From a virus (taxonomy: Duplodnaviria; Caudoviricetes), in IMG/VR virus record IMGVR_UViG_3300020045_009723, positions 1 through 42,644 of that record: 42,644 nucleotides of DNA; one strand, written 5' to 3'. Each line of letters opens with the position of its first letter. Positions within the stretch are counted from its first letter, which is position 1. The notes below the pieces were generated by a model, which did no database searches, was not told the origin of the DNA, and saw only the letters and a list, made by a program, of their open reading frames with translations. The position numbers and the translations under genes are program-made. This document shows, one piece after another, positions 1,989-42,644 of this stretch.

Positions 1989-2047
1989 AGGAATGTGGCA
2001 CCCAATGATGCTACTTAGTTCTATAGATTAGAGAGGTGGAAAACCAA

Positions 2048-2839
2048 ATGGCAGTTACATCACAAGAATTCAAAAGCATGCACGAATTCCTGAACTACCT
2101 TAATGAGGCACAAACAAACGACAGATTCTTAGGTTCGCGTTTGGCATCACGTGATACGGACAGAGAATTCTACAAAACGTCAAACTTTCAAGAAGCTGTT
2201 GATTTGGCAAAGAATGGTTGGAATGTGGTGGCGGCACAAATTGAAACTAAACTCAAACTAATGGCAAATCAAGTTGAAACAAAAACAACTACAAGATCGA
2301 GATACGATGTGGCAGGCTTTCAAGCTTCGGTACCGAGATACTTACAGGGCAATCCAATGAGCATGGTGAACCAATCTAAAGCGGTTCAAAAGCAGAAAGT
2401 AATTACTATCGTAAAACACATTGGTTATTTAGGTCACATAAAATCAAATGATATTATTGAGTATTCAACTAGGGCACTTCAGATAGTGAAAAAGGTTGAG
2501 GCACAAGGTTACAGAGTTAACTTAGATATTATTTCCCCAGTAGAAGATCGAAGAGGTAACACAATAATTTGTAGGGTGAGAATAAAAAACGCCTCTGAGA
2601 GATTAAACGTCGCCAAAGTCGCTTTCCCCTTAGTTCACCCGTCAATGCTTCGCAGATTGGTTTTTAGTTTTAGAGAAACACACCCACAAATTACACCAAC
2701 GACGTGGCAAATTACAGATATGGGAATTACAATCCAAAATGTAGATGTGGTGAAAAAACTTCTGAACCCGGGAGAATATTATCTCCACAATGTAATAAAT
2801 GATGTAGACGAAGCAATAAAACAAATGCAGTTGAAGTAG
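2048..2839 (+). CDS. vWA-like partner of the MoxR ATPase (DUF7192-like)
   Basis: YDVAG..VPRYLQGNP..M, G(Y)RVNL and HPSMLRR motifs; lies next to a MoxR AAA gene. Start moved to ATG 2048 from the SD position. Confidence 0.6.
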   Translation: MAVTSQEFKSMHEFLNYLNEAQTNDRFLGSRLASRDTDREFYKTSNFQEAVDLAKNGWNVVAAQIETKLKLMANQVETKTTTRSRYDVAGFQASVPRYLQGNPMSMVNQSKAVQKQKVITIVKHIGYLGHIKSNDIIEYSTRALQIVKKVEAQGYRVNLDIISPVEDRRGNTIICRVRIKNASERLNVAKVAFPLVHPSMLRRLVFSFRETHPQITPTTWQITDMGITIQNVDVVKKLLNPGEYYLHNVINDVDEAIKQMQLK

Positions 2840-2870
2840 AAAACGCAAATAAATTGAAAAACTTTTCAAA

Positions 2871-2893
2871 AGGGGGTATTCGCCCCCTGTTTT
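2871..2893 (+). terminator. Intrinsic terminator-like hairpin overlapping the next promoter
   Basis: AGGGGG-TATTCG-CCCCCT-GTTTT; TGaTATACT extended -10 follows at 2897-2905. Confidence 0.55.
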
Positions 2894-2966
2894 CTATGAT
2901 ATACTATAAATGTGGTGAAACACATGGCCACAAATTAGTTCTAAGATTAGAAAGGCGGAAACAAAC

Positions 2967-4037
2967 ATGGCATCGACAATGATTAGTTCAATCAAAGCAG
3001 CGAAGATTCAGCACATCGAGAAAAGCTGGAAATACGAGGGACACTGCTTCGTACGTACTATTGATGGTAAAGATCACAAACGCAAAATTCACACTTCCAA
3101 GAAACTAACTGGTAAAGCTTTCATTAACTTAGACACTGACGTTTTCAGCTTCACCTGGAACGGCAACAGAGCTGAAGGTATTGAATGGATCGGTAACTAC
3201 AAAACTGGCGAATACAAAACCTTTGAAGAAGTCGTCAAGGCAGCTGAGCTAATCGCTTCCCCGAAAATGGTATTCATTGAAGATACGGACGACGTGGTTA
3301 AACACGAAAAATACATACAAATCAAAACCTGCATTGAAAATGACATTCCGGTATATCTGGTTGGCCCTGCTGGTTCTGGTAAAAACCACACACTTGAACA
3401 GATCGCAGACGAACTCGGACTTGACTTTCACTTCACAAATTCAGTGCAGCAAGAATTCAAACTGACCGGATTCATTGATGCTGGTGGAAAATTCCACGAA
3501 ACAGAATTCTACAAAGCTTTCACAAACGGTGGTTTATTCTTCCTCGACGAGATGGACGCTTCGATACCTGAAGTTCTGGTTCTACTGAACGCGGCGATCG
3601 CCAATAGGTACTTTGAATTTCCGAACGGCAAGGTTGATGCACACGAAGATTTTAGAGTGGTATCTGCAGGAAATACGGTTGGTTCAGGTGCTGACGAACA
3701 GTACACTGGCAGATTGGTGCTAGACCAAGCTACACTTGATAGATTCAGCATTATAGAATTCGACTACAGCGAGAAAATTGAGATTCACCTTGCTAAGGGA
3801 AATGCTGATCTGGTATCCTTCATACGGGACCTGAGATCACAGGCTAAAGAAAAAGGAGTTAGAGCTACATTCTCCTACAGATGCATTTCAATGGTGGTCA
3901 AACTTGAAGGCAAACTAGAATTGACTGACGTAATGCTGATGGCAGTGGTTAAAGGAATGGACAAAGATACAGTAAGAACCTTCCAATCAAACGGTTATAC
4001 CAGATACCACCAAGCACTAAAAGCGGTTCAGGCATAA
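2967..4037 (+). CDS. MoxR/CbbQ-type AAA+ ATPase
   Basis: Walker A GPAGSGKN, Walker B FFLDEMD, HEDFRVVSAGN, LDQATLDRF. Confidence 0.9.
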   Translation: MASTMISSIKAAKIQHIEKSWKYEGHCFVRTIDGKDHKRKIHTSKKLTGKAFINLDTDVFSFTWNGNRAEGIEWIGNYKTGEYKTFEEVVKAAELIASPKMVFIEDTDDVVKHEKYIQIKTCIENDIPVYLVGPAGSGKNHTLEQIADELGLDFHFTNSVQQEFKLTGFIDAGGKFHETEFYKAFTNGGLFFLDEMDASIPEVLVLLNAAIANRYFEFPNGKVDAHEDFRVVSAGNTVGSGADEQYTGRLVLDQATLDRFSIIEFDYSEKIEIHLAKGNADLVSFIRDLRSQAKEKGVRATFSYRCISMVVKLEGKLELTDVMLMAVVKGMDKDTVRTFQSNGYTRYHQALKAVQA

Positions 4038-4334: not shown

Positions 4335-4658
4335 TTGAAGTTCCAGAATCCGTACTGGGGCAACCAAACAAAGATTGAGCTCCTTCAAAAGTGGCTCATA
4401 ATTCACAGTATTATATATTATGAGTTGAACACCTCAGTGGTCAGCGATGCAATGTATGATCAGAATAGTAACCAATTGATTGAGCTGATCAAAGCTGACA
4501 GGCAGAGCTTCAGGAGCTCACGTTGGTATAGAATCTTCAAGGACTTTGATGGTAGTACAGGCTTTGATCTTTATAGCAAATTATCAAGTAAAGAGCAGAA
4601 CGAGCTGGAACATTTGGCAATGCAAATTGTCAAGTTAAAGGAGGTTAGAGATGGATAA
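4335..4658 (+). CDS. Stand-alone NAD-dependent DNA ligase subdomain Ia-like protein
   Basis: HSIIYYELNTSVVSDAMYD resembles the LigA Ia motif HxxxYY..(P)xxSDxxYD; there is no adenylation domain. Confidence 0.7.
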   Translation: MKFQNPYWGNQTKIELLQKWLIIHSIIYYELNTSVVSDAMYDQNSNQLIELIKADRQSFRSSRWYRIFKDFDGSTGFDLYSKLSSKEQNELEHLAMQIVKLKEVRDG

Positions 4659-5587: not shown

Positions 5588-5918
5588 ATACCACGGGCAT
5601 TCAGTTAAACCAAACGGCGCAGTTGATCTTAGCTTTAAACTTCCTTACGACGAACTTACATCAGTAGTTAAAACCCTCCAAATGCTTAACGTGAACATTA
5701 CAATTATGGCAAAGATCGAGGACGACAAACCAATAAAACTAGGAATGCTGATGCTAAAGAACGTTACCATTGATCACGATGGTGAAGCGGTTCTTAAATT
5801 CAATTCGCAGCTTGACTACGTTGAGGCAGACAATATCAACGACTTGGCCAAAACAGAACGATTTACTTTATTAATGAAAGCAGAGATCGAAGCGGAAACA
5901 GAAGCGGATGACGAATAG
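5556..5918 (+). CDS. Hypothetical protein
   Basis: AAAGGGA SD before ATG 5556; acidic C-terminus. Confidence 0.7.
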   Translation: MPEIKVKAVGKYHGHSVKPNGAVDLSFKLPYDELTSVVKTLQMLNVNITIMAKIEDDKPIKLGMLMLKNVTIDHDGEAVLKFNSQLDYVEADNINDLAKTERFTLLMKAEIEAETEADDE

Positions 5919-6156
5919 GATGGCTAACAACTTCGTTCAGCTGTCTAAAGCGAAGATTCAAGAAACAAGATTTGCTGTGACGAGCCAAAACGTTAGAGAC
6001 GGTGGATTCACTATAGCACAGCAATTGGTAGTTAATGAAGGTAAGCGAAGAACGTCGGTGTTTATGAAGGAAGCGATGCACTTAGACTCATTAGAGAACC
6101 TTTACAACCTTAGGGATTCATTAAACGAGGCAATTCAAATAGTCGAAAATAGTTGA
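5908..6156 (+). CDS. Hypothetical protein, possibly PC4/Whirly-like ssDNA-binding fold
   Basis: A pattern of beta strands followed by an amphipathic helix; the fold call is weak. Confidence 0.55.
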   Translation: MTNRMANNFVQLSKAKIQETRFAVTSQNVRDGGFTIAQQLVVNEGKRRTSVFMKEAMHLDSLENLYNLRDSLNEAIQIVENS

Positions 6157-6165
6157 AATAAAACG

Positions 6166-6194
6166 TTTACAGATCATGTATATTATGGTATACT
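6166..6194 (+). promoter_or_regulatory. SigmaA-type promoter with extended -10
   Basis: AAACG-TTTACA-N17(ending TGG)-TATACT. Confidence 0.85.
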
Positions 6195-6252
6195 TATAAC
6201 GTGGTCGCTTTGATCGACCAGAATTAGTCCTAAAGATTAGGGAGGTAGAAAG

Positions 6253-6393
6253 ATGTTTGAGATTGGTAACAAGGTGTATTTCTACGATGAGGAAGGTTAT
6301 ATGGACACCCTTACTGTTCGTGACGAAGAGGACAACGAATATTATACCGATTTGGTAAATAACGGGTGTATCAGGATATTCAAAATTGTATAG
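6253..6393 (+). CDS. 46-aa acidic early protein (not in the ORF track)
   Basis: GGAGGT SD; MFEIGNKVYFYDEEGYMDTLTVRDEEDNEYYTDLVNNGCIRIFKIV. Confidence 0.75.
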   Translation: MFEIGNKVYFYDEEGYMDTLTVRDEEDNEYYTDLVNNGCIRIFKIV

Positions 6394-6489
6394 TGGTTTA
6401 AAGTTACCCAAGGCAAATCAAGCCTTAAAATAAAGTAAAATTAAAAGCTCTACGGAGCGGTGCGAAACGCACAAGAAAGGAAGATTCAA

Positions 6490-7146
6490 ATGGCGAAAAA
6501 ATGGTTAGTAGGCGACGCAGTTCGCGCAATCCAATCCGGAGACAAAGAGGCAGTTCTTGACATCGGCAGACGTTATCCTCTATTCCTAGTAGCAGCGGCT
6601 CCTGGCAATATTCAAGGTTTACTGGAGATCATTGATGCAATCCCCGATTACGTTTCAGCCAGAAAGATTGAATCCGTTTTCCGAGGTGAGGTTGCCGACG
6701 GTGCTGATGGTGATGACGATGAGCCGACCGTGACTCCTGAAAAAACCTCCAAGAAGGAGAAAGAGACTGCTAAGGCCCCTAAAGAGGAAAAGAAAGAAAA
6801 ATCCGGTAAAAAAGCCAAAGCTGATGACGATGACGACGATGAGCCAGCTCCTAAAAAAGGAAAGAAAGACAAGAAAGCGGCCCCTGACTTTGACGAGATG
6901 GACCTTGACGAACTGAAAGAGTACGCTGAGGAACACGAAATTGACCTGAGCGACCTGTCCAAGAAAGAGCTCAAAGACGAAGACGCTGTTCGCGAAGTGG
7001 TAGAAAAAGCTGCAAAGAAAGCTGCCAAAAAAGCAGCTGAAAAGGCTGCTAAAAAATCCAAAGCTGACGACGACGATGAGCCAGCAGCCAAGAAAACTAA
7101 AAAAGGTAAAAAGTCCGATGACGACGACGATGACTGGGACGTCTAA
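6490..7146 (+). CDS. Lys/Asp/Glu-rich low-complexity protein with HeH/Rho-N-like motif; putative DNA-binding protein
   Basis: Globular N-terminus, then K/D tracts, DFDEMDLDELKEYAEEHEID, AAKK repeats, ending DDDDDDWDV. Start ATG 6490 follows AGAAAGGA. Confidence 0.75.
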   Translation: MAKKWLVGDAVRAIQSGDKEAVLDIGRRYPLFLVAAAPGNIQGLLEIIDAIPDYVSARKIESVFRGEVADGADGDDDEPTVTPEKTSKKEKETAKAPKEEKKEKSGKKAKADDDDDDEPAPKKGKKDKKAAPDFDEMDLDELKEYAEEHEIDLSDLSKKELKDEDAVREVVEKAAKKAAKKAAEKAAKKSKADDDDEPAAKKTKKGKKSDDDDDDWDV

Positions 7147-11621: not shown

Positions 11622-11819
11622 ATGTATTTCTTAGCTTTGTTTTTTCCGCCACTTGCAGTTCTGCTGTGTAAGAAGCCGTTTCAATCTATGCTCAATCTAT
11701 TACTTACATGTCTGGGTTGGATACCAGGAGTAATTCATGCCATTCTAATAGTATCCGAATACAGTAGGCAGAAACAAACAGTAATGGTAGTTAATGCAGT
11801 GAAAGGAGAAAGGCAGTAA
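11622..11819 (+). CDS. YqaE/Pmp3-family small membrane protein
   Basis: LALFFPPLAV...LNLLLTCLGWIPGVIHA signature. Confidence 0.9.
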   Translation: MYFLALFFPPLAVLLCKKPFQSMLNLLLTCLGWIPGVIHAILIVSEYSRQKQTVMVVNAVKGERQ

Positions 11820-12170: not shown

Positions 12171-12491
12171 ATGGTGACAAACTTTAAATTGATCATGGGT
12201 GATGAAAAACTGCCTATTGGTTACGAATTAACTGGTCATGCATCAAATAGTATTGTATGTGCAGCAATCTCTGCTCTCGCTCATTCAACAGCAGAAGGGC
12301 TAGAGAAAGTACTTAATTTGGACGTTGTAGTTGAAACTGATGAGCAACGTGGTTATATGAAATGTACTTATACTATTGGTTATAGTGATTGTAAATATTA
12401 TGGGGCATTCGCTTTGATCAAAACGTTGGTTAACGCTTTGCAGTCCGTTGAACGTGATTACCCAGGAAACGTTATATTTATTATGTCGTGA
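12171..12491 (+). CDS. prp: Prp-family (DUF464) ribosomal-processing-like cysteine protease
   Basis: GYELTGHA...IVCAAISAL..T..GL His-Cys dyad motif; C-terminal L..V...YP.NV; 106 aa. Confidence 0.85.
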   Translation: MVTNFKLIMGDEKLPIGYELTGHASNSIVCAAISALAHSTAEGLEKVLNLDVVVETDEQRGYMKCTYTIGYSDCKYYGAFALIKTLVNALQSVERDYPGNVIFIMS

Positions 12492-14039: not shown

Positions 14040-16109
14040 ATGACGGTATCAACTGAAATAAATAGTTTACTAGCAGATCAGTTGTTTGCCATTTATTCGC
14101 ACGCTGAAATGTTAATGATGGATAAGGTAGCAAAAAGGGTAGCTCGAGGGCTGACAGGGCCGACGTGGTCAACCGAGAAACTAGCAGATGTTCTATCATC
14201 TAAGGCAGAGTTAAAGGCTGTTGTAGATGACCTGACGACGATAGCATCAAAGAGAGTAGATTCAGCAATTGTTGATTCATATTTGAAAGGTGTTAATTCA
14301 GCAGAGAAAGATCATGGCCTACCAAGAACAGTTTTAAGGAACATGGAAGTTCCTGGTCATTTGCAGCGTTTGGTCCTAGAGTCCAATAAAATGATCGTTG
14401 GAACCAGTGCTCAAATACTTAGGGATGTAGACGATGTGTTCAGAAAAACCCAAGCAGAGGCAGCATCGTTAGTTCTTGCTGGAGTGGATACAAGAAAGCA
14501 GGCTGCTCAACGGATGCTGAACAAATTTGCTGATCGCGGAGTAACAAGCTTTGTTGATAAGGCAGGCAGAAACTGGGAAATGGCGTCATATACTGAAATG
14601 GCAACCAGAACGGTCACTGCTCATGCTGCTCTGCAGGGCCACATTGACCGTCAGGCAGTGATCGGAAATGATCTTGTAATAGTATCAGCCAATGGTACAT
14701 CATGTCCTATATGTCAGCCGTGGGCAGGTAAAGTTCTTAGTATAACAGGTAATACGGCTGGTTACTCGACAGTTCAGAATGCAAGAGATTCAGGGTTATT
14801 TCATCCAAATTGTAGGCACATCGTTACGGCATTTTTCCCTGATGTCCCTGATGCCCCTACACCTGATACATCAGCTTATAATCCTGAGTCCTATGAGATG
14901 ACACAGAAGCAAAGACACAACGAACGTCAGATACGTAGGTGGAAACGGCGAGAGGTTGTAGCAATGTCTCCACAAGAACATCAGTTTGCTTCAGGCAAGG
15001 TTAGAGAATGGCAGGCAGCACAACGTCAACTGCTTAAAGAATACGAAGATAAGTTTGGTATAGAGTTAAAACGAAAGTATGATCGAGAAAGTATAGTTAA
15101 TAGAACAGGAAAAGCTGGATCAGACGGCTCGCCTAATTGGACAGAATTTAAACCACGTTATATTGCTGGAGCTAAAGCAAAAGCAGTTAAGAAAACTGCA
15201 GTTAAAAAAGAAGTTGCTAAGGCGAAAGAAATACTTGGCTTTAAACCCGAGATCACAAAACCAACACCTATTCCAGAAGGTGCTAAGCAAGTCAATACTA
15301 AAAACATACCTACGTTGAAGCATTTAAAGGATAGGCAAAAGAAGTATGTTGAACAATCATTTTCCGCAACAGCCGACAACGACCCAAAATATGATGTAAT
15401 TAAAAACAAATTAGAGTTATTGGCAGAAAATAGTGTAACACGCACCAGGGTATCGGAAGAAGTACTAAATTATATTGTTGCCGATGGAAGGTTTAAGAAC
15501 CAGTTTGAGGTTGGTAGATCACGTGGAACATACGACCCGTCTTTTAGACGTCAAGCAAGCAATAAGTTGTTTGGTACAAAGAGAGGAACAGCCAAGGAAG
15601 ATTATGAATTTTATGGGTATCTTGGCCATAAAGATATAGTAGAGGATATAGTAGCGGCACATCCAAGGCAATATGGTGATGTTGTTGTTACTTTAAAACC
15701 GCATGTTCGTGAAAGAACAACGTTTACTATTGATGATAGTTTAGGTCCAGCAACAAACGAAAGAATGGTAGCTTCTTTGTTAGAAGATGTGAACCCTGTA
15801 AATTTAAGACTGAGAGATGCCGAAGAATTATACAACATGCCCGTAGAAAAGATGAACCCAGTTGACGTCGTAGACACTTGTTACATCAGGTATGTTGAAG
15901 CGCAGTATCATGGCGGTTTAACTATTGCCGACATTGAAAGCGTACACATAGAATCAATTAGTTTGGAAGATATTAGGCCAAGCACTATGGAAAAAATGAA
16001 AGAACACGGAATATCAGTTCACTCCTACAATGTTGGTGACGCTAAATGGTATGGCACGGATAAAGAGAAGCGAAGAAAACAGATAAAAGTAACTCAGTTA
16101 GATTTATAG
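14040..16109 (+). CDS. Minor capsid (MuF/gp7-like) protein with a C-terminal DUF3626-like putative toxin domain
   Basis: N-terminal DKAGRNW..Y.EMATRT, CPICQPWAGKV, GLFHPNCRH, QKQRHNERQIRRWKR. C-terminal FKNQFE..S.G, YGYL, QYGD, RTTFT.DDSL, YVEAQYHG. Confidence 0.85.
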   Translation: MTVSTEINSLLADQLFAIYSHAEMLMMDKVAKRVARGLTGPTWSTEKLADVLSSKAELKAVVDDLTTIASKRVDSAIVDSYLKGVNSAEKDHGLPRTVLRNMEVPGHLQRLVLESNKMIVGTSAQILRDVDDVFRKTQAEAASLVLAGVDTRKQAAQRMLNKFADRGVTSFVDKAGRNWEMASYTEMATRTVTAHAALQGHIDRQAVIGNDLVIVSANGTSCPICQPWAGKVLSITGNTAGYSTVQNARDSGLFHPNCRHIVTAFFPDVPDAPTPDTSAYNPESYEMTQKQRHNERQIRRWKRREVVAMSPQEHQFASGKVREWQAAQRQLLKEYEDKFGIELKRKYDRESIVNRTGKAGSDGSPNWTEFKPRYIAGAKAKAVKKTAVKKEVAKAKEILGFKPEITKPTPIPEGAKQVNTKNIPTLKHLKDRQKKYVEQSFSATADNDPKYDVIKNKLELLAENSVTRTRVSEEVLNYIVADGRFKNQFEVGRSRGTYDPSFRRQASNKLFGTKRGTAKEDYEFYGYLGHKDIVEDIVAAHPRQYGDVVVTLKPHVRERTTFTIDDSLGPATNERMVASLLEDVNPVNLRLRDAEELYNMPVEKMNPVDVVDTCYIRYVEAQYHGGLTIADIESVHIESISLEDIRPSTMEKMKEHGISVHSYNVGDAKWYGTDKEKRRKQIKVTQLDL

Positions 16110-35213: not shown

Positions 35214-36009
35214 CGATATAAAAAATCAGGTGAAAAAAACAGGTACAAACAAGAAGAACATTTTGTACTTCAAATCAGGCACTAAGGTTCGCGTTCGCTT
35301 TTTGCAGGACATGGAGGAAGGCCTGGAGTTAAACTTCCATGACAGTTATGTGTTGGGTGTAAACCTTCCGTGCCAAGAGTTATACGAAAGAGAATGTAAA
35401 TACTGTGAGGACGAAGAACTTCGCCACAGAAAGCAGTACGTCTGGTCAGTATGGGACCATGAAGCTAAAGAAGTTAAACTACTGATGGGCCCCGTAAACA
35501 ACGCATCTCCAATACCTTCTCTTGTGGCCATGTACGACACCTACGGGACGTTGACCGATCGTGACTATGTAATAACCAAGAACGGTTCAGGCACGGGCCT
35601 TACATACAGTGTGGTGCCCATGGACAAAGCCAAGTTTAAGAATGAGAAAGCAAAACCATTCAGCGAGAAAAAGACAATGTCCATTATTGACAAAGCGTTT
35701 CCGGATGCAGACGACGATGCGGACGATGAACCCAAGAAAAAGAAAGGTTTTTCTAAGAAGCACGATGACGACGATGACGAACCGAAAAAGAAAAAGCAGT
35801 CCAAGAAACGTGATGACGACGACGATGATGATGACGACGAAACCGGAAATGACTACGAAGATATGTCCGCGAAAGAACTTTTCAAGGAATGTAAAAAGCG
35901 TGGCATAAAAGCTAAACCCGAGAAAAAGAAAAACTACTACGTTGAGCTGCTGGAAGAGGACGACGAAGAGTCTGGCGCCACTGACGATGACGATGAGTGG
36001 GACGAGTAA
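35200..36009 (+). CDS. Single-stranded DNA-binding protein (gp32-like, Zn-binding) with acidic/Lys tail
   Basis: VRVRFL, H...C...CKYC, DYVITKNGSG..TYSV; very acidic C-terminus DDDDEWDE. Confidence 0.75.
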   Translation: MGLVDDIKNQVKKTGTNKKNILYFKSGTKVRVRFLQDMEEGLELNFHDSYVLGVNLPCQELYERECKYCEDEELRHRKQYVWSVWDHEAKEVKLLMGPVNNASPIPSLVAMYDTYGTLTDRDYVITKNGSGTGLTYSVVPMDKAKFKNEKAKPFSEKKTMSIIDKAFPDADDDADDEPKKKKGFSKKHDDDDDEPKKKKQSKKRDDDDDDDDDETGNDYEDMSAKELFKECKKRGIKAKPEKKKNYYVELLEEDDEESGATDDDDEWDE

Positions 36010-36358
36010 TTCAAGTTTGCTAACGACTTTATTTGAGAAACAAGCCGAGTTCCAAAAGTTAGTTACTGGTGAAACGTTACCAAAGGACGATGTAAAATGG
36101 TTTTCGTATCACATGCAGGCAATAACGGAGGAGCTCGGTGAAGTTCTCAAGTCAGATAAGCGGTGGAAAACGCACAGAAATGTGCACTACGACCCTGAGA
36201 ATAAATTGGTAGAACTTGCGGATGTATTTATTTCGTGTATCAATATGGCCCTGTTTTCTGGTTTTGATGCACGTGTTCTTTACAACGCAATTGAAACTAA
36301 AATAGCAGAGAATATGGAAAAACTAGAAAAGGGGCAAACAAATGATAGTAGTAGTTGA
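35993..36358 (+). CDS. All-alpha dNTP pyrophosphatase (dimeric dUTPase/dCTPase, MazG superfamily)
   Basis: EKQAEFQ, AITEELGEV...RWKTH, ELADVF, K...N: the ExxE...ExxD metal motif. Confidence 0.85.
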   Translation: MSGTSNSSLLTTLFEKQAEFQKLVTGETLPKDDVKWFSYHMQAITEELGEVLKSDKRWKTHRNVHYDPENKLVELADVFISCINMALFSGFDARVLYNAIETKIAENMEKLEKGQTNDSSS

Positions 36359-37259
36359 AGGAATTGATAGGGTTGGAAAAACAACTCTTTGCAAAAGGTT
36401 AGAAGATAAAGGCTTTTGGTACTTCAAGGATATTTGGAACATGGTTCCGCTAGATAGTGAAGTATCGTGCTACGTAACTGGTAAGTTTGATTCAACTTTA
36501 AACATGCTTAAAATGCTGAATGAGAAAAACGTAAATGTTGTCATTGACAGGTTGCATTTGACGGAATTTGTTTATGGTTGTTGTGAACGTGGTGGCAGTA
36601 ATTTTAATATTTATCGCAAAGTTGATGAATTTTTAGCAGCATTAGATTGTATGTTGGTTTTAATGTCGCCAACGGACGTTAAAGAATCAAGCAGGCAGCA
36701 CGGTAGTTCATTAACTATGCACAACAGGTTATTTAATTTGTGTTTTGAAGAATCAAAAATTAAATTAAAGTATCGCACCATGTTTGACGGTATCAATTAC
36801 CTTGTTAGTAACATTACTGGTTGTTGGTATGATTTGTATTTTGCTTCGCCTTTTTTCAATCCAGAACAGATCGAGCGGGAAGAGTCGTTAATTGCATCGC
36901 TTCGAACAAGCGGCTTCAGAGTTTTTAGCCCAAAAGAAAGTATTTTACTAAAGCCAAACTCTTCCGATCATGACCAAGAAAAAGCATTCAATGAAAACGT
37001 TAAAGCGATAAAAAAGGCAAGTGCCGTGTTTGCCGTTACGGATGGCAAGGACGTTGGTACAATTTGGGAAGCAGGTTATGCATACGGTGTTGGTAAGCCG
37101 ATCATATACTTTGCAGAAACTCTTGGTAATAATAACTTTAACGTAATGCTTGCAAAATCCGGAAATGACGTATTTCTTTCACGAAGTCAAATTACAAAAC
37201 ACGCAATTGAACGTGCAATTGCAGGTGGCAAAATGAACTACAAAGGGTGTATCGAATGA
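36342..37259 (+). CDS. Fusion of a thymidylate-kinase-like dNMP kinase and a nucleoside 2-deoxyribosyltransferase/nucleotide N-glycosidase domain
   Basis: N-terminal VVEGIDRVGKTT, IDRLHLTEFVYG. C-terminal LYFASPFF, VFSPKE, DGKDVGTIWEAGYAYGVGKP, NVML. Confidence 0.88.
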   Translation: MIVVVEGIDRVGKTTLCKRLEDKGFWYFKDIWNMVPLDSEVSCYVTGKFDSTLNMLKMLNEKNVNVVIDRLHLTEFVYGCCERGGSNFNIYRKVDEFLAALDCMLVLMSPTDVKESSRQHGSSLTMHNRLFNLCFEESKIKLKYRTMFDGINYLVSNITGCWYDLYFASPFFNPEQIEREESLIASLRTSGFRVFSPKESILLKPNSSDHDQEKAFNENVKAIKKASAVFAVTDGKDVGTIWEAGYAYGVGKPIIYFAETLGNNNFNVMLAKSGNDVFLSRSQITKHAIERAIAGGKMNYKGCIE

Positions 37260-37795
37260 GCAGAATAGACGGTGATTTTTTAAAAAGAACGTACAGGCTT
37301 AATCACATGGTTAGGTATAACCCTTGGCCCAAACTTAACCCAGAAAACGTTGCAGCCCATTCCTTTTACACATCCCTATTTGCCCTTGTATTATGTGAAG
37401 AGTTTGGTGTTTCTCCCGGAATTAAGCTAGAGGCGTTGGAGATAGCTTTGGTTCATGACACGCCAGAGTCAGTAACCAATGACATAACACACGATGCCAA
37501 GGTCATGATGCCTGAACTAGATTCGTTGCTTGCCAAGTTCGAACGGCAATTTATTGATGACCATTTCCCGCAGCAGTACAGTTCATTATTTATGCAATGT
37601 TCCGTCGGTTCACACATTGCTCGGTTAATAGTAAAACTTGCAGATGTTCTTTCTACAGTTCAGTACTGCAACAATGAAATTTCGCTTGGCAATTCCGGAA
37701 TGAATGAAATTCTAGGGCAGGCGAGACAAAGAGTTGCTGACGTTAAAAACGAGTTAGAGGAGGCAGGAATACGATGCCAGAAAATAGTAATTTAA
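37256..37795 (+). CDS. HD-domain 5'-deoxynucleotidase (YfbR/DatZ-like)
   Basis: VRY...ENVAAHS, ALVHDTPES.TNDI, VKLAD, E..LGN. Confidence 0.88.
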   Translation: MSRIDGDFLKRTYRLNHMVRYNPWPKLNPENVAAHSFYTSLFALVLCEEFGVSPGIKLEALEIALVHDTPESVTNDITHDAKVMMPELDSLLAKFERQFIDDHFPQQYSSLFMQCSVGSHIARLIVKLADVLSTVQYCNNEISLGNSGMNEILGQARQRVADVKNELEEAGIRCQKIVI

Positions 37796-38748
37796 CTCCA
37801 GTAAAACACCCAATGGTGATCAGATTTGGTGAAAAACCAACAACAGAGTTTAAGAACAATTTGGATTCAATTAAAGTTTCGTTATTGAATGCACCGTCCA
37901 TGGAACAGCTTAGAAATTACTTGGTTCCATTTCTTGAAGCTACTTGGGCAGAGGGCCCACTTGATTCCGCTTCGCTTCCCCTTATCGAGAAAGATCATAT
38001 TTTACGCGAATGTCTGTTTGGCCGTGCATTACCAACTGCTCTTGAAACTGTAAGGTTAACATTTCTCATTGAAGGAATAAGTTTGCAGGAAGTTACACAC
38101 ATTCTGCGGTACAGAACGGCCAGTTTCTCAGCTGATTGTTCAGCAGATAAGTGGTGGTCTCATAAAGCCGCATTGGTTCCTAGTGCTATTCAAAACAGTA
38201 GCGAAATTTACCAGCGGTATCAGAAGTTAATGGAAGATGCAAAGCAGCTGTATTGCGATATTATCGACACAAAAGAAATCACAATTATGGATGCACGGTA
38301 CGTTTTGCCTAGGTGCTTTGAAACATACTACTTTATGAGTATGAGCATTAAGGACGCAATTCATTTTATCAACCAACGCATTGATCGAATGATTCAGCCG
38401 GAAACAGACAACGTTATGGCGTACCAAATGTACATGCAAATGTTGGCACGCTTTCCTATTTTATACGATGTGATCAACATTGACGAGCCAAGCTGGTTTT
38501 ACATCAAAACAGCACGAACTGGTAAATCCACAAGTTTGTACGTACCCGACGAAACAAATGACAAGTGGGAGTGGAACAGAGAGGACTTTATTTACGGTCG
38601 GCAACGGAGTGAATTGCGTGGAACGGATGTTGGTGCACGTTGTATATTTGATGAATATTTAGAAGTATTTAAAGAAGATATTGAGTTCCTTAACAGGAGT
38701 AGTAGGCGTTCGCTAGTAAAAGAATATTCGGAACAATTACAAAAATAA
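37774..38748 (+). CDS. ThyX-fold flavoprotein with divergent active site
   Basis: ALE...TFLIEGIS...HILRYRTASFS, DARYVLP...T, FINQR....QPE. ThyX scaffold, but the canonical motifs are altered, so no symbol is given. Confidence 0.8.
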   Translation: MPENSNLTPVKHPMVIRFGEKPTTEFKNNLDSIKVSLLNAPSMEQLRNYLVPFLEATWAEGPLDSASLPLIEKDHILRECLFGRALPTALETVRLTFLIEGISLQEVTHILRYRTASFSADCSADKWWSHKAALVPSAIQNSSEIYQRYQKLMEDAKQLYCDIIDTKEITIMDARYVLPRCFETYYFMSMSIKDAIHFINQRIDRMIQPETDNVMAYQMYMQMLARFPILYDVINIDEPSWFYIKTARTGKSTSLYVPDETNDKWEWNREDFIYGRQRSELRGTDVGARCIFDEYLEVFKEDIEFLNRSSRRSLVKEYSEQLQK

Positions 38749-41415
38749 ATGGATTTTCGCAATTACCTTTTTGATCTACATAGGCATGATGAATTTAGTA
38801 CGTTTGATGGTTTTGGAAAGGCAAGGGAGGCTGCTCGAAGGGCAAAAGAACTCGGGTACCCTGCGCTTGGCCTTTCCAATCATGGTAACGTTAGTGGCTT
38901 AGTTAAGCATTACGAGGCTTGCAAAAACGAAGGTATCATTCCGGTAATGGGAATGGAGGCGTACTTTCAGCCAAGTTTCGATAAAGACAAAAACACGTAC
39001 CATTTGTGTTTATTCGCAAAGAATCGCCAAGGCTGGACTTCTTTGATGAACTTAACAAATGTATCTGCAAAGGAAACGTTTTACAAAAAGCCAATAGTTA
39101 CATTTGAAAACTTAGAACAATTCAGCGAAGGGTTAATTTGCACTTCAGCTTGCGTTGCAGGCTTAATTCCAAAGTTAATCAAAAAAGGTAACTTTGATTC
39201 AGCAATTAAAATTACCAAAAAGTTCAAGCGAATATTCGGTGATGACTTTTACTTGGAAGTTCAGCCATTTAAGATCAACGAAAAACATAATGGAGTAGAC
39301 TTACAAACGTACACGAATGCTAAAATAATACAACTTGCAAGCAAGCTGAACATTGAATTGGTAATGACTTCTGATTCACATTTTGTTTCCCCTGATGATT
39401 ACGACACGTACCTAATGATGCATAAAATGTTAGGCACGAGTTACGGAGAACATTACGAACACAGGTATATGCATTCTCAGAAACGATTTGCAAAAGCATT
39501 CATGGATATGCACGACAACAAACAATTGCTAAAGTCAATTTGTTTATCAATGAAAGGCCTCGTTGAGAAGATCGAACACGAAACTATGCTGGACTTTGAA
39601 CTTGAAGTACCCGCTTACGGTGACACGCCAGAGGAGAGCTACCAAACACTTAAATCTGGATGTATCAGAACGTTAAAGCGGGAAGGCAAATGGACAGGCG
39701 AATACAAAGATCGCTTAAAGTACGAATTGCCAGTAATTAAACACCATGGCTTTCAAGATTACTTTTTATTGGTGCAAGATTATGTTCAGTACTGCAGAGA
39801 TAATGACATCGCCGTTGGTCCTGGTCGTGGTTCAGCTGGCAACAGTTTGGTAACGTATGGCCTAGGCATCACAGATGTTGACCCAATCTTCTTTCACAAT
39901 GACTTTGATAGGTTCCTAAGGATGGATAAAAAGAAGTCGCCAGACATTGACCTAGACTTTTGTACCAATAGACGGTATGAGGTGATCGAGTACATCCTTG
40001 ACAAATACCCAGATCAGTCGGCACAGATAACATCGTACGGAAACTATAAAGCTAAGTATTTGGTTGGTGATTTGGCAAAGCAGTATGATATGCCAGAAGA
40101 AGAAGTGGCGAGGCTGAAAAAGCTCCTTTCTGATTATGAGGTTCCTGGTAGTTTGTATATCAGCTTTGAAGAACTAATGGAAGATCATAACGTTAGACCA
40201 TACAATAAGCTGTACCCTGACATCATTAAACACTTTTGTAAACTGTTTGGCATGATACGATACTTCGGAAAGCACGCTGCTGCGGTTGCAATTACGAAAG
40301 GTAAATTGTGGGACAGAATTGGTATACAAAAGCAGGGTGGCCTATTTAAAACAGCATTCGACTTCAATGACGTTGAATATTTGAAAACATTGAAGCTGGA
40401 TATTTTAGGGTTAAAAACAGTTTCTATGGTGGATGAAATGGCCAAAATATCCGGAGAACACAGAAACATTTATGAAGTAATTGACGACCCGGAAATTTAT
40501 AGATTCTTTCGAGAAGGGCGATGCGACGGAATATTTCAATTCACTTCCCCGACACCAGTTCAAATGTGTGTAGATATTGGAGTTACTAACTTTGAGGACG
40601 TCGCCGCTGCTTCTTCGTTGAATAGGCCTGGACCGTTATCACTGAGAATGCATGAGCAGTATGCAGCGGCGAAAGATAACCCAGTAACTGACACGGCTTG
40701 GTATAAGCACGTTAAAGCGACACATGGTATTATCATCTACCAAGAGCAGATTATGCGAATATGCAGAGATTTGGCTGACGTCCCGTGGGACATAACGGAC
40801 AAGTTGGTTCGCTCTGATTCGCATCACATGAAGCTTGAAGATCGAGAGGCATGGAGCAAGGTGTTTCTTGACGGTGCAATAAAGAAAGGCATGACAAAGG
40901 ATGCAGCCCAACAACTTCTGGAAATGGTTTTAGGGTACGCATTTAACAGGGGCCACGCGATTGCTTACAACATGCTTTCTGTTCTTCAAATGTGGTACAA
41001 GGTGTATTTCCCCATTCAATTCTGGTCAATAGTTTTGAAGTACCAAGAGGACATTGGCAAGCGGGAGAAATTCAAAAGCAAAGCCGTTGCTGATGGCTGC
41101 GTAGTAATGTTACCCCACGTAAATTATACTGCTAGTGATTCAATCGGTAAGCTCCAAGGCGAACCAGTTATCCGTGAAGGACTAATGGTAATTAAGAACG
41201 TCGGAGACAAAGCGGCACTAACCATTGAAGAAGAACGCAAGAAGAACGGCACATACAAATCAATGGACGACTTTATGTCAAGGGTGCCAAAACGTTCAGT
41301 AAACTCCAGAGTAGTTAATGCGTTGATCGACAATGGTGCTTTAGAGTTTAACTTTGACACTTATATTAACAGAGTGACAAAGTACAATGCAACGTTGTAC
41401 ATGAAAGGAATGTAG
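38749..41415 (+). CDS. dnaE: DNA polymerase III alpha subunit (family C), compact 888 aa
   Basis: PHP domain DLHRH..STFDG, NHG, GMEAY, SDSH; GPGRGSAGNSL; PDIDLDF; KLDILGL; YQEQIM; YAFNRGHA; HhH KNVG. Confidence 0.95.
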   Translation: MDFRNYLFDLHRHDEFSTFDGFGKAREAARRAKELGYPALGLSNHGNVSGLVKHYEACKNEGIIPVMGMEAYFQPSFDKDKNTYHLCLFAKNRQGWTSLMNLTNVSAKETFYKKPIVTFENLEQFSEGLICTSACVAGLIPKLIKKGNFDSAIKITKKFKRIFGDDFYLEVQPFKINEKHNGVDLQTYTNAKIIQLASKLNIELVMTSDSHFVSPDDYDTYLMMHKMLGTSYGEHYEHRYMHSQKRFAKAFMDMHDNKQLLKSICLSMKGLVEKIEHETMLDFELEVPAYGDTPEESYQTLKSGCIRTLKREGKWTGEYKDRLKYELPVIKHHGFQDYFLLVQDYVQYCRDNDIAVGPGRGSAGNSLVTYGLGITDVDPIFFHNDFDRFLRMDKKKSPDIDLDFCTNRRYEVIEYILDKYPDQSAQITSYGNYKAKYLVGDLAKQYDMPEEEVARLKKLLSDYEVPGSLYISFEELMEDHNVRPYNKLYPDIIKHFCKLFGMIRYFGKHAAAVAITKGKLWDRIGIQKQGGLFKTAFDFNDVEYLKTLKLDILGLKTVSMVDEMAKISGEHRNIYEVIDDPEIYRFFREGRCDGIFQFTSPTPVQMCVDIGVTNFEDVAAASSLNRPGPLSLRMHEQYAAAKDNPVTDTAWYKHVKATHGIIIYQEQIMRICRDLADVPWDITDKLVRSDSHHMKLEDREAWSKVFLDGAIKKGMTKDAAQQLLEMVLGYAFNRGHAIAYNMLSVLQMWYKVYFPIQFWSIVLKYQEDIGKREKFKSKAVADGCVVMLPHVNYTASDSIGKLQGEPVIREGLMVIKNVGDKAALTIEEERKKNGTYKSMDDFMSRVPKRSVNSRVVNALIDNGALEFNFDTYINRVTKYNATLYMKGM

Positions 41416-42348
41416 ATGGCAAAAACAAACAAAGAGAAGATCATGCAGATGTGCAAAACGATTGAGCAGAAGGAAGGTGTAGGAAGTATATTTCCTATTG
41501 GTTCCAAAAAGTCTGCTTTGAAGATTGCACGTTGGTCAACTGGAATTGAGGACTTAGACTATATTTGGGGTGGCGGTGGTCCAGAGGGTAGAATCATTGA
41601 AATATTTGGCCCTGAATCCAGCGGCAAAACGTCGCTTGGTTACCACCTAATGTCACTGCATGATATGGGTTTATATATACCCATTGAAGGAACGTTCGAC
41701 TCACAGAGAGCAGCATCCTTTGGGAATAGGCCTAAGCAGATGTTCATATACCGTGCCAAGTACGGCGAACAGGCAATGGCTAAGATGATGAAATTCGCCC
41801 AAGCTGGAATGCCATTGATCATACTTGACTCAGTTCCCGCATGTAAGCCCAAGGAAGATAAAGAAAAGTTGCACAAAGGCATTGACAAAGACGAAGCAGT
41901 AAACCAGCGAATGGGTGGAGTGGCCCGTTTAATGCACCAGTACCTCCCAGAACTTGAGGAAATATGCGAATTTACTGGCACTACGGTAATTCTAATAAAT
42001 CAAGTCAGGGATAAAATGGACGCCATGATGTTTGGTGAAAAAACAGACACGCCAGGAGGCAGGGCAATTAAACATTACAGTAGCATTAGAATGCAGGTTG
42101 GCAGAAAAGGCTGGATTGAGATACCGAACAAGGACCCTAAAAATGCAGCAGTTAACCAAAAGGTTGGCTTGATAATGAAATGTAAAGTAGTGAAGTCCAA
42201 GGTGTGCAATCCTATGATGGAGGCAGAACTCCCCATGATGTTCGACAGGGGCTTCGTATCCTTTGATGATATTCCAACCATTAGAAAGGAACTAATGAAA
42301 CAGGGGAAGCGTGGCAGCTCCGTAGATGATGAGGAGGACGATGACTAA
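41416..42348 (+). CDS. recA: RecA/UvsX-like recombinase
   Basis: GRIIEIFGPESSGKTS, ILDSVPA, ILINQVRDK, TPGGRAIKHYSSIR, KVVKSKV. Confidence 0.92.
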   Translation: MAKTNKEKIMQMCKTIEQKEGVGSIFPIGSKKSALKIARWSTGIEDLDYIWGGGGPEGRIIEIFGPESSGKTSLGYHLMSLHDMGLYIPIEGTFDSQRAASFGNRPKQMFIYRAKYGEQAMAKMMKFAQAGMPLIILDSVPACKPKEDKEKLHKGIDKDEAVNQRMGGVARLMHQYLPELEEICEFTGTTVILINQVRDKMDAMMFGEKTDTPGGRAIKHYSSIRMQVGRKGWIEIPNKDPKNAAVNQKVGLIMKCKVVKSKVCNPMMEAELPMMFDRGFVSFDDIPTIRKELMKQGKRGSSVDDEEDDD

Positions 42349-42644
42349 TGGCTTCCATAGTAGATGATATTAAACGTGGAGCAATCAAAGCTGGTTCTAA
42401 TGGCACAGAAGCTTTAATAATAGAACAGAAGCTTAACAAGCTATTTTACCTTCCTGCAAATGCTAAGCTTGAATCTAAGTTTCTAAGGCAGATACTTGAA
42501 AAGGAAAGCCACCAATCTGACAGGTTCGGACTTCACGCATCGTCAATAATAGTACCTGAGAATGAATTCTGCTACAAACAGCAGGTTCTTAGTCTATTCT
42601 ACAAACAGATTCAGGGCGACAACGTACCAATTGGCTTAAAGCGA
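42348..42644 (+). CDS. 5' part of a Cas4-like (PD-(D/E)xK, Fe-S) exonuclease that spans the circular junction and continues to 652 (~275 aa in total)
   Basis: ATG at 42348 overlaps the recA stop and follows GAGGAGG. It reads MASIVDDIK...RFGLHASSIIVPENEFCYKQQVL, in frame with ORF 164..652. Confidence 0.8.
   Translation, partial: MASIVDDIKRGAIKAGSNGTEALIIEQKLNKLFYLPANAKLESKFLRQILEKESHQSDRFGLHASSIIVPENEFCYKQQVLSLFYKQIQGDNVPIGLKR
42524..42644 (+). repeat. Terminal direct repeat, copy 2
   Basis: Exact copy of 1-121. Confidence 0.95.

Follow-up and report, generated by a model that had tools for sequence, protein, structure and literature searches.

What reaction is left to a ThyX-fold protein in which the residues that handle folate-borne carbon have been replaced, and what do its neighboring genes say about that reaction? 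The question is raised by an open reading frame (ORF) at positions 37774 to 38748, plus strand, of IMG/VR record IMGVR_UViG_3300020045_009723, a Caudoviricetes sequence of 42,644 bases whose whole length we refer to as the window. Its 324-residue product, here called the variant ThyX, had been described in a first-pass annotation, made by eye from the sequence, as a flavoprotein that still acts on a nucleotide. As judged from its sequence, it represents a variant ThyX fold encoded within a cassette for DNA modification, where it is predicted to modify C5 of a pyrimidine deoxynucleoside monophosphate (dNMP); it lacks the folate-stacking His53 and is of a Cys type. The reading that we favor, tentatively, is that the enzyme couples 2-deoxyribose reductively to C5 of dCMP, instead of a folate-borne methylene. 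Papers given below by accession number are cited for the excerpts available to us.

Active site of the variant ThyX

The ThyX fold proposed in the first-pass annotation was borne out. The protein matches Pfam Thy1 (PF02511) with an E value of 2e-19 and 70.5 bits against a cut-off of 24.8, and its predicted model (pLDDT 85.5, pTM 0.86) superimposes on five ThyX structures with Z scores of 13.4 to 15.6 and root mean square deviations of 2.6 to 3.3 Å, the next fold reaching a Z score of 5.3. A search of the ESM Atlas returned Thy1 clusters only, and a purine-rich stretch resembling a ribosome-binding site lies upstream of the ORF. The score against the TIGR02170 thyX equivalog model, 41.4 bits, was below the cut-off of 87.9. 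A flavin-binding tetramer is the predicted form of the variant ThyX. When residues 25 to 260 were modeled in four copies, the score was 0.91, which may reflect the predictor's memory of ThyX; the best of three controls scored 0.00. Of the solved homo-pairs used for calibration, 20 of 30 reach the mark set for such scores, as does 1 of 23 single chains. The runs had at least 91% of contacts in common at a pLDDT of at least 83; of the tetramer with FAD that had been suggested as a check, these runs thus scored the tetramer, with FAD included but unscored.

Residues were mapped with phmmer against Thermotoga maritima ThyX (3g4c) and with a profile against Mycobacterium tuberculosis ThyX. His53, which stacks the folate in ThyX, corresponds to Leu86 (38029 to 38031), five residues before the kept Glu58 (E91), and proper alignment did not restore the His that had been reported missing. 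In place of the S88-G-R90-Y91 loop stands C122-S-A-D125 (38137 to 38148); the change of Ser88 to Cys122 was reproduced by both alignments, and that of Tyr91 to Asp125 had been overlooked. The RxR flavin contacts are kept, as had been claimed, in R112-x-R114 (38107 to 38115, equivalent to Arg78 and Arg80), and so is Arg174, as R202 (38377 to 38379). R175 (38296 to 38298) keeps Arg147. All of these positions lie on the plus strand, and the last two residues are Arg in all 107 aligned loci.

Searches with the variant ThyX found 637 relatives at an E value of 1e-3 or below. Among the matches listed, all 120 relatives have Leu at the His53 position, the RxR pair, and a C-[ST]-[GA]-D-[KR] loop, whose Asp takes the Tyr91 position, and none (0/120) has a canonical SxRY or GH..EH motif. 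Because the loop is present in 120/120, the residue changes are family-wide rather than signs of decay, and a decayed pseudo-enzyme, which we considered, was ruled out by this invariance. The other substitutions fared less evenly. Arg90 is indeed Ala (Ala124) in the window protein, but only there, the family state being Gly (119/120 among the matches listed); His79 is Tyr113, but this change does not define the family, as His is found in 7/120 of the same relatives and in the majority of distant kin. The changes of Arg74 to Thr and Gln75 to His hold in an ungapped reading (T108/H109), with equal segment lengths and a continuous predicted helix from 104 to 111, whereas the hidden Markov model (HMM) sets H109 on the His preceding the Gln75 equivalent, with compensating gaps, which leaves the register ambiguous. 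A one-residue deletion at Gln75 was dropped on account of the equal lengths and the continuous helix.

A profile search gathered 804 cluster representatives, with Cys-x-Gly/Ala-Asp/Glu in 55 of the 88 listed ones of at least 250 residues. Cultured carriers are Bacillus subtilis 3610, whose pBS32 copy is 47.6% identical to the variant ThyX, and Geobacillus phage GR1 (45.2%). We found no description of the family, or of sugar-aldehyde use by ThyX, in CC-licensed PMC and bioRxiv papers, and nothing on the family in the excerpts of PMC7824862, PMC8989533, PMC5954106, and PMC10237291.

In ThyX, Ser88, Arg90, and Tyr91 activate the flavin carbinolamine; the S88A, R90A, and Y91A substitutions each strongly slow the reaction, and with Y91A the rate at which the carbinolamine is consumed drops more than 100-fold (PMC8316439). 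Arg174 activates uracil (N3), and free formaldehyde can be used by ThyX via flavin N5 (PMC8316439; PMC11940539). Canonical ThyX (T. maritima TM0449, M. tuberculosis 2af6, PBCV-1 4fzb) and the UMP/dUMP methylase PolB (4p5a) share with the variant the fold, the predicted tetramer, RxR, Glu58, Arg147, and Arg174. The variant differs from canonical ThyX in having Leu for His53, Cys for Ser88, Gly or Ala for Arg90, and Asp for Tyr91, in its roughly 100 additional residues with invariant motifs, and in its fixed partner genes. Because the score lies below the equivalog cut-off, the methylene-handling residues are lost, and the gene sits in a base-substitution cassette, we agree with the first-pass annotation that ordinary methylation of dUMP from methylenetetrahydrofolate is unlikely.

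Partner genes in the window and in other phages

The variant ThyX ORF closes a series of four genes that overlap one another and immediately precede dnaE, all on the plus strand. An all-alpha dNTP pyrophosphatase of the dUTPase_2/MazG-like kind (35942 to 36358; PF08761, E value 7e-6), predicted to be a dCTPase or dUTPase, is followed by a fusion (36342 to 37259) of a thymidylate-kinase-like P-loop kinase (N-terminal ~160 residues) with a nucleoside 2-deoxyribosyltransferase (NDT; residues 165 to 263), identified by PF05014 (E value 5e-18), a weak PF02223 match, and phrog_761. Aligned to 6evs, the NDT retains the D..GT.WE and N.M positions, and it retains the Asp/Asn that mark nucleoside-type enzymes. 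Next comes a YfbR-like HD-domain 5'-deoxynucleotidase (HD; 37247 to 37795; PF12917, E value 8e-18), whose best phage match is in GXN1 (41.7%). DnaE, the Pol III alpha subunit assigned from Pfam and PHROG (38749 to 41415), lies directly downstream and is predicted to insert the modified dNTP.

We scanned 107 loci, the window included, fetched with close and distant alignments, plus GR1 and pBS32, using HMMs built from the neighbors. Of the 42 loci with a C-x-G-D loop, one of which (L027) was placed in the group by hand, 41 have an NDT or a mutase-like FAD-binding protein nearby; the exception is a locus cut 580 bases upstream. The two partners were never found together (0/107 loci), the NDT partner of a His53-less ThyX is mostly accompanied by HD, and in a quick tree, with 13 label changes, the partners swap inside the C-x-G-D clade. 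Because the best solved relatives of the mutase-like protein are UDP-galactopyranose mutases (E value 4e-9), both alternative partners have sugar-activating folds; UDP-galactopyranose mutases form a flavin-N5 sugar adduct. With identical motifs collapsed, a partner was present in 59 of 67 His53-less loci and in 2 of 11 His53-bearing loci (Fisher p 6e-6, which overstates the case, given the kinship of the loci and their retrieval by motif).

For a second test we took, from 80 sister DnaE loci, the 49 that are at least about 40% identical and have more than 2 kb of upstream sequence; six of these repeat earlier loci. Among the 14 loci whose ThyX lacks His53, 12 have both NDT and HD, whereas none of the other 35 does, among them 21 ThyA-type and 5 U32-type cassettes. 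This contrast ties NDT and HD to the chemistry of His53-less ThyX and not to base substitution generally. Simple reduction or O2-dependent hydroxylation is not supported as the leading idea, because it leaves the sugar-type partners unexplained and because three prophage-like relatives sit in bins named Clostridia, Ruminococcus, and Bacteroidales, the first two of which are groups of anaerobes. The neighborhood points to C5-alkylation with a sugar.

Further ThyX types were seen in these surveys. A third clade (16 loci, among them L055, L058, L063, and L089) has a G-G-R-D loop, a mutase-like partner, and a dUTPase-NT5C fusion, with no kinase detected in its 16 loci. A second His53-less type, at L150:7914-8822 and in loci L149, L151, L154, L156 to L158, and L186, is accompanied by NDT, HD, a kinase, and a methyltransferase; its loop is E-S-Q-M-P, the motif having been read in four of the eight loci. 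In loci L030 to L043, kinase-UDG fusions, FkbM/TylF methyltransferases, sugar epimerases, and glycosyltransferases adjoin the type-B variant ThyX.

Phages with measured sugar-chain thymines carry a comparable set of genes. About half of the thymine of Bacillus phage SP-15 is replaced by 5-(4,5-dihydroxypentyl)uracil, and its second, divergent Thy1 gene, gp130, has been proposed to encode a hydroxymethyl-dUMP synthase (PMC5977210). We found that gp130 adjoins an NDT gene (gp127) and a short-chain dehydrogenase/reductase (SDR) gene (gp129), the HD gene lying elsewhere; this tandem (L114:38729-41910, gp127 to gp130) is a candidate dihydroxypentyluracil pathway. According to the titles of 1978 papers, a ribose label reportedly enters dihydroxypentyluracil, and the base is said to be made as the triphosphate. 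The gp130 protein matches 10 of 50,697 phage records; NDT and HD were present in 5/5 tested phages with a gp130-type ThyX, and 3 of the 17 phage records matched by the window NDT are phages of this type. One gp130-type phage, GXN1, has NDT, HD, and a ThyX-like gene arranged as in the window, and the NDTs of the two nest together (support 0.98). The gp130-type proteins of SP-15, Carin-5, and YerA41 thus resemble the variant ThyX in being divergent ThyX folds with related NDT and HD partners. They differ from it in their length (about 410 residues), in an apparent tandem ThyX arrangement seen by eye, and in keeping S-x-R, and their phages have their own A-family polymerase with UDG and make thymine analogues.

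The thymidines of YerA41 and Carin-5 carry linkers of 104 and 88 (PMC12686479; PMC13697223). Deoxyuridine (dU) plus deoxyribose minus oxygen gives 346.14, or thymidine plus 104, the YerA41 spacer, and one oxygen fewer gives thymidine plus 88. Pbunaviruses F8 and 14-1 have nucleosides of 362 and 390 (bioRxiv 10.1101/2025.03.31.646159), and dU plus pentose minus oxygen gives the 362 of F8; the excerpts of that study describe no biosynthetic route. Nominally, then, published masses fit dU plus sugar minus oxygen. The ThyX of Pbunavirus R12 lacks His53 and Tyr91, keeps Arg147 and Arg174, and has a sugar-enzyme partner, a mutase-like gene 1.2 kb upstream; it is unlike the variant ThyX in its clade, in retaining Arg90, in having this partner and not NDT and HD, and in its association with a thymine analogue in TG context. 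The pair at L120:3627-4628 and 5848-6765, an unannotated mutase-like FAD protein near the R12 ThyX, is a candidate source of the modified Pbunavirus thymidine. In YerA41, gp086 (L118:11380-11916), annotated as a mannosyltransferase, scores above the NDT cut-off and lies 2.3 kb from the divergent Thy1 gene gp081.

Acceptor base, proposed reaction, and alternatives

By analogy with sister phages, the acceptor base is probably cytosine, because dCMP-type ThyA enzymes fill the same slot there. In 21 sister loci, the slot with kinase and pyrophosphatase upstream of dnaE is occupied by ThyA-fold enzymes in which Asp, a mark of dCMP specificity (PMC13326640), takes the place of N177. The sister kinases are 28 to 41% identical to that of the window and the pyrophosphatases up to 58%, the best (57 to 58%) being in dCMP-type ThyA cassettes. 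A mini-ThyA with the same Asp is present in 25 of the 42 C-x-G-D loci and in 0 of the 65 others. Thymine-modifying relatives retain Arg90 and lack the Cys; a Cys nucleophile and the loss of Arg90 would fit cytosine, which has no N3-H.

Restriction-site counts lean weakly the same way. The SP-15 piece strongly avoids GC-only palindromes (GGCC, 0/17; CCGG, 1/25), whereas C-x-G-D genomes mostly do not, nor does the Carin-5 piece; the window gave 76/77 for GGCC, 180/174 for AGCT, 139/132 for GATC, 37/50 for CCGG, and 28/45 for GCGC. CCGG, GGCC, and AGCT are strongly avoided by five closely similar kinase-less sisters but not by three further loci without the kinase, and CCGG is also missing from two ThyA cassettes. 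Near-total avoidance of GATC was seen in kin genomes (G003, 0/54; G005, 0/102; G010, 9/151; G006, 19/109; G001, 35/151).

The sister slots vary in ways of their own. The mini-ThyA (150 to 220 residues; L007:11002-11595, L113:12975-13427, and 23 other loci) keeps Cys, RS, and H-x-Y, and in GR1 and pBS32 it also has the Asn at D169 that has been published as marking 5-hydroxy-dCMP synthases (PMC13326640). In L180, L183 (5783-6862), L184, L187, and L189, the slot holds a kinase, glycosyltransferase-like genes, and a U32-peptidase-family protein, with no thymidylate synthase in the slot of these five sisters; the U32-family protein is a candidate oxygen-independent dCMP hydroxylase acting with glycosylation. 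At L148:8498-9935 and L006:4895-8454, two or three divergent ThyA-like genes stand in a row.

The reaction that we propose would begin with the pyrophosphatase converting dCTP to dCMP. HD would strip a dNMP to the nucleoside, and NDT would cleave the nucleoside, either releasing 2-deoxyribose or passing it on; in its open-chain form this sugar is an aldehyde and could take the place of formaldehyde. Cys122 would add to C6 and render C5 nucleophilic, a step that is required because canonical ThyX deprotonates N3-H, which cytosine does not have. The loss of Arg90 and the gain of Asp125 would make room and may serve to read the 4-amino group. C5 would then attack the sugar aldehyde, or the adduct of this aldehyde with flavin N5; after loss of water, FADH2 would reduce the exocyclic double bond, as in ThyX. 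The fused kinase, together with host kinases, would make the triphosphate for insertion by DnaE. The predicted product is a 5-(trihydroxypentyl) base, with a nucleoside mass of 345.15 for deoxycytidine or 346.14 if the base is uracil. It is conceivable, though we hold this wider view more loosely, that the ThyX proteins lacking His53 make up a large superfamily of phage enzymes, flavin-dependent sugar C-alkylases, in which the sugar aldehyde would be deoxyribose supplied by HD and NDT or an NDP-sugar supplied through the mutase-like partner; the Cys clade would make 5-(trihydroxypentyl)cytosine, and the same logic would yield the bases of SP-15, YerA41, Carin-5, and the Pbunaviruses.

Known base-substitution systems offer a partial parallel. 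The T4-type hydroxymethyl-dCMP pathway employs gp42, gp56, and gp1. This pathway and the ThyA-fold 5-hydroxy-dCMP synthases (RB69 gp48, DLP3 gp80; PMC13326640) follow the same logic of a pyrophosphatase, a dNMP modifier, a kinase, and the phage's own polymerase, but the window modifier has the unrelated ThyX fold and is accompanied by NDT and HD, which those cassettes lack. The Z-DNA set of DatZ, DutZ/MazZ, and DmtZ (PMC12884076) likewise places an HD hydrolase, a pyrophosphatase, and an NDT-family enzyme beside a nucleotide-modifying synthase; unlike that set, the window gave no PurZ (adenylosuccinate synthase) match among the 59 ORFs of the complete genome scanned with Pfam, and its NDT keeps the Asp/Asn that DmtZ lacks.

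Three other readings were weighed against dCMP alkylation. That the variant ThyX is a one-carbon or oxygen modifier, a hydroxymethyl-, methyl-, or hydroxy-dCMP or -dUMP synthase working through Cys122 and Asp125 while HD and NDT clean or swap nucleotide pools, seems to us rather doubtful. A Cys nucleophile with a pocket acid mirrors the ThyA-fold hydroxymethylases (PMC13326640), the variant sits in the slot of such enzymes in sister phages, and the NDT enzymes of Z phages hydrolyze or swap bases (PMC12884076). Yet the 21 ThyA-type and 5 U32-type sister cassettes all do without NDT and HD, this reading leaves unexplained why these partners interchange with a sugar-mutase-like gene, and the folate-stacking His is lost; the glycosyltransferases that adjoin the variant ThyX in GR1 and L027 could be expected here but suit a polyol handle equally. 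We consider it unlikely that the same sugar is grafted onto dUMP, giving 5-trihydroxypentyl-dU (346.14) and partial replacement of thymine as in YerA41 and SP-15. All measured sugar-chain bases in phages with NDT, HD, and a divergent ThyX are thymine analogues, the uracil-N3-activating Arg174 is kept, the GXN1 gene order and NDT are those of a gp130-type phage, 10 of the 15 type-B loci have UDG genes, and no mini-ThyA or PF00303 match was found in the window (in one search without a positive control and in another with local HMMs that do match six kin genomes). Against dUMP stand the retained Arg90 and absent Cys of the thymine-modifying relatives, the slot shared with dCMP-type ThyA cassettes, and the palindrome avoidance of SP-15, which most C-x-G-D genomes do not show, although the Carin-5 piece does not show it either.

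The remaining reading, an ordinary divergent dTMP synthase among generic nucleotide-supply genes, is very unlikely. The fold and predicted tetramer are those of ThyX, the variant is the sole Thy1 gene in 5/5 complete kin genomes tested, the window has no ThyA, and automatic annotation calls the protein an FAD-dependent thymidylate synthase. In opposition, His53, Ser88, Arg90, and Tyr91 are lost together and invariantly among the relatives listed, three of them being residues whose single replacement strongly slows ThyX; the score falls below the equivalog cut-off; 9 of 11 His53-bearing phage ThyX genes lack these partners; and a dedicated dNMP kinase would be superfluous.

Apart from the missing mini-ThyA, several points weigh against sugar transfer to dCMP or its extension to other phages. 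The partner HMMs were built from the loci that they scanned, which biases detection toward those loci, and the window NDT has transferase-type features that may disfavor hydrolysis. The window mildly avoids CCGG, GCGC, and CCNGG, and 7 of 10 kin genomes avoid GATC (z below -5), so protection by the base would be at best partial or specific to a class of sites. Homology of gp130 to the variant family was not found by HMM (scores about 0) or hhalign (probability 1.5%), so the link to SP-15 is by module only. The 346 of YerA41 is a positive-mode fragment m/z (PMC9023294), and [M+H]+ of the proposed structure would be 347; the YerA41 and Carin-5 linkers are read differently by their authors (PMC12686479). 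An SDR as the cause of the 88 rather than the 104 linker was considered and rejected, since YerA41 has a gp129-like SDR and that of Carin-5 was not matched. The authors of the F8 study propose a tetritol on thymine in TG context (bioRxiv 10.1101/2025.03.31.646159), a context that hints at a post-replicative step. In the excerpts of the GR1 paper, no restriction or modification data were found.

ThyX is known as a one-carbon enzyme, and transfer of a five-carbon sugar to a pyrimidine would, if true, be new flavin C-C chemistry and would predict that common gut-type phages contain a DNA base not yet reported. The gene pairing would offer a concrete route to the SP-15 dihydroxypentyluracil side chain, which has lacked an explanation since the 1970s, as well as to the linkers of YerA41, Carin-5, and therapeutic Pbunaviruses. 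Loss of His53 together with an NDT or mutase-like partner could serve as a sequence marker to flag modified genomes whose key enzyme is annotated as a plain thymidylate synthase.

Other features of the window genome

Direct terminal repeats mark the 42,644-base record as a complete phage genome. By Pfam and PHROG assignments, its genes include those for the head, the tail, and lysis, and its replication block comprises primase, single-stranded-DNA-binding protein, DnaE, and RecA. ORFs at 42348 to 42644 and 164 to 652 fall in one Cas4-like exonuclease cluster, which fits a single gene split at the record ends. A DUF7192 and AAA_5 ATPase pair and a stand-alone NAD-ligase Ia domain are found at 2036 to 4037 and 4335 to 4658. 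Between terminase and portal lie a Pmp3 membrane proteolipid and a Prp cysteine protease (11622 to 11819 and 12171 to 12491), and the minor capsid protein (14040 to 16109) has a C-terminal DUF3626 domain (E value 7e-7).

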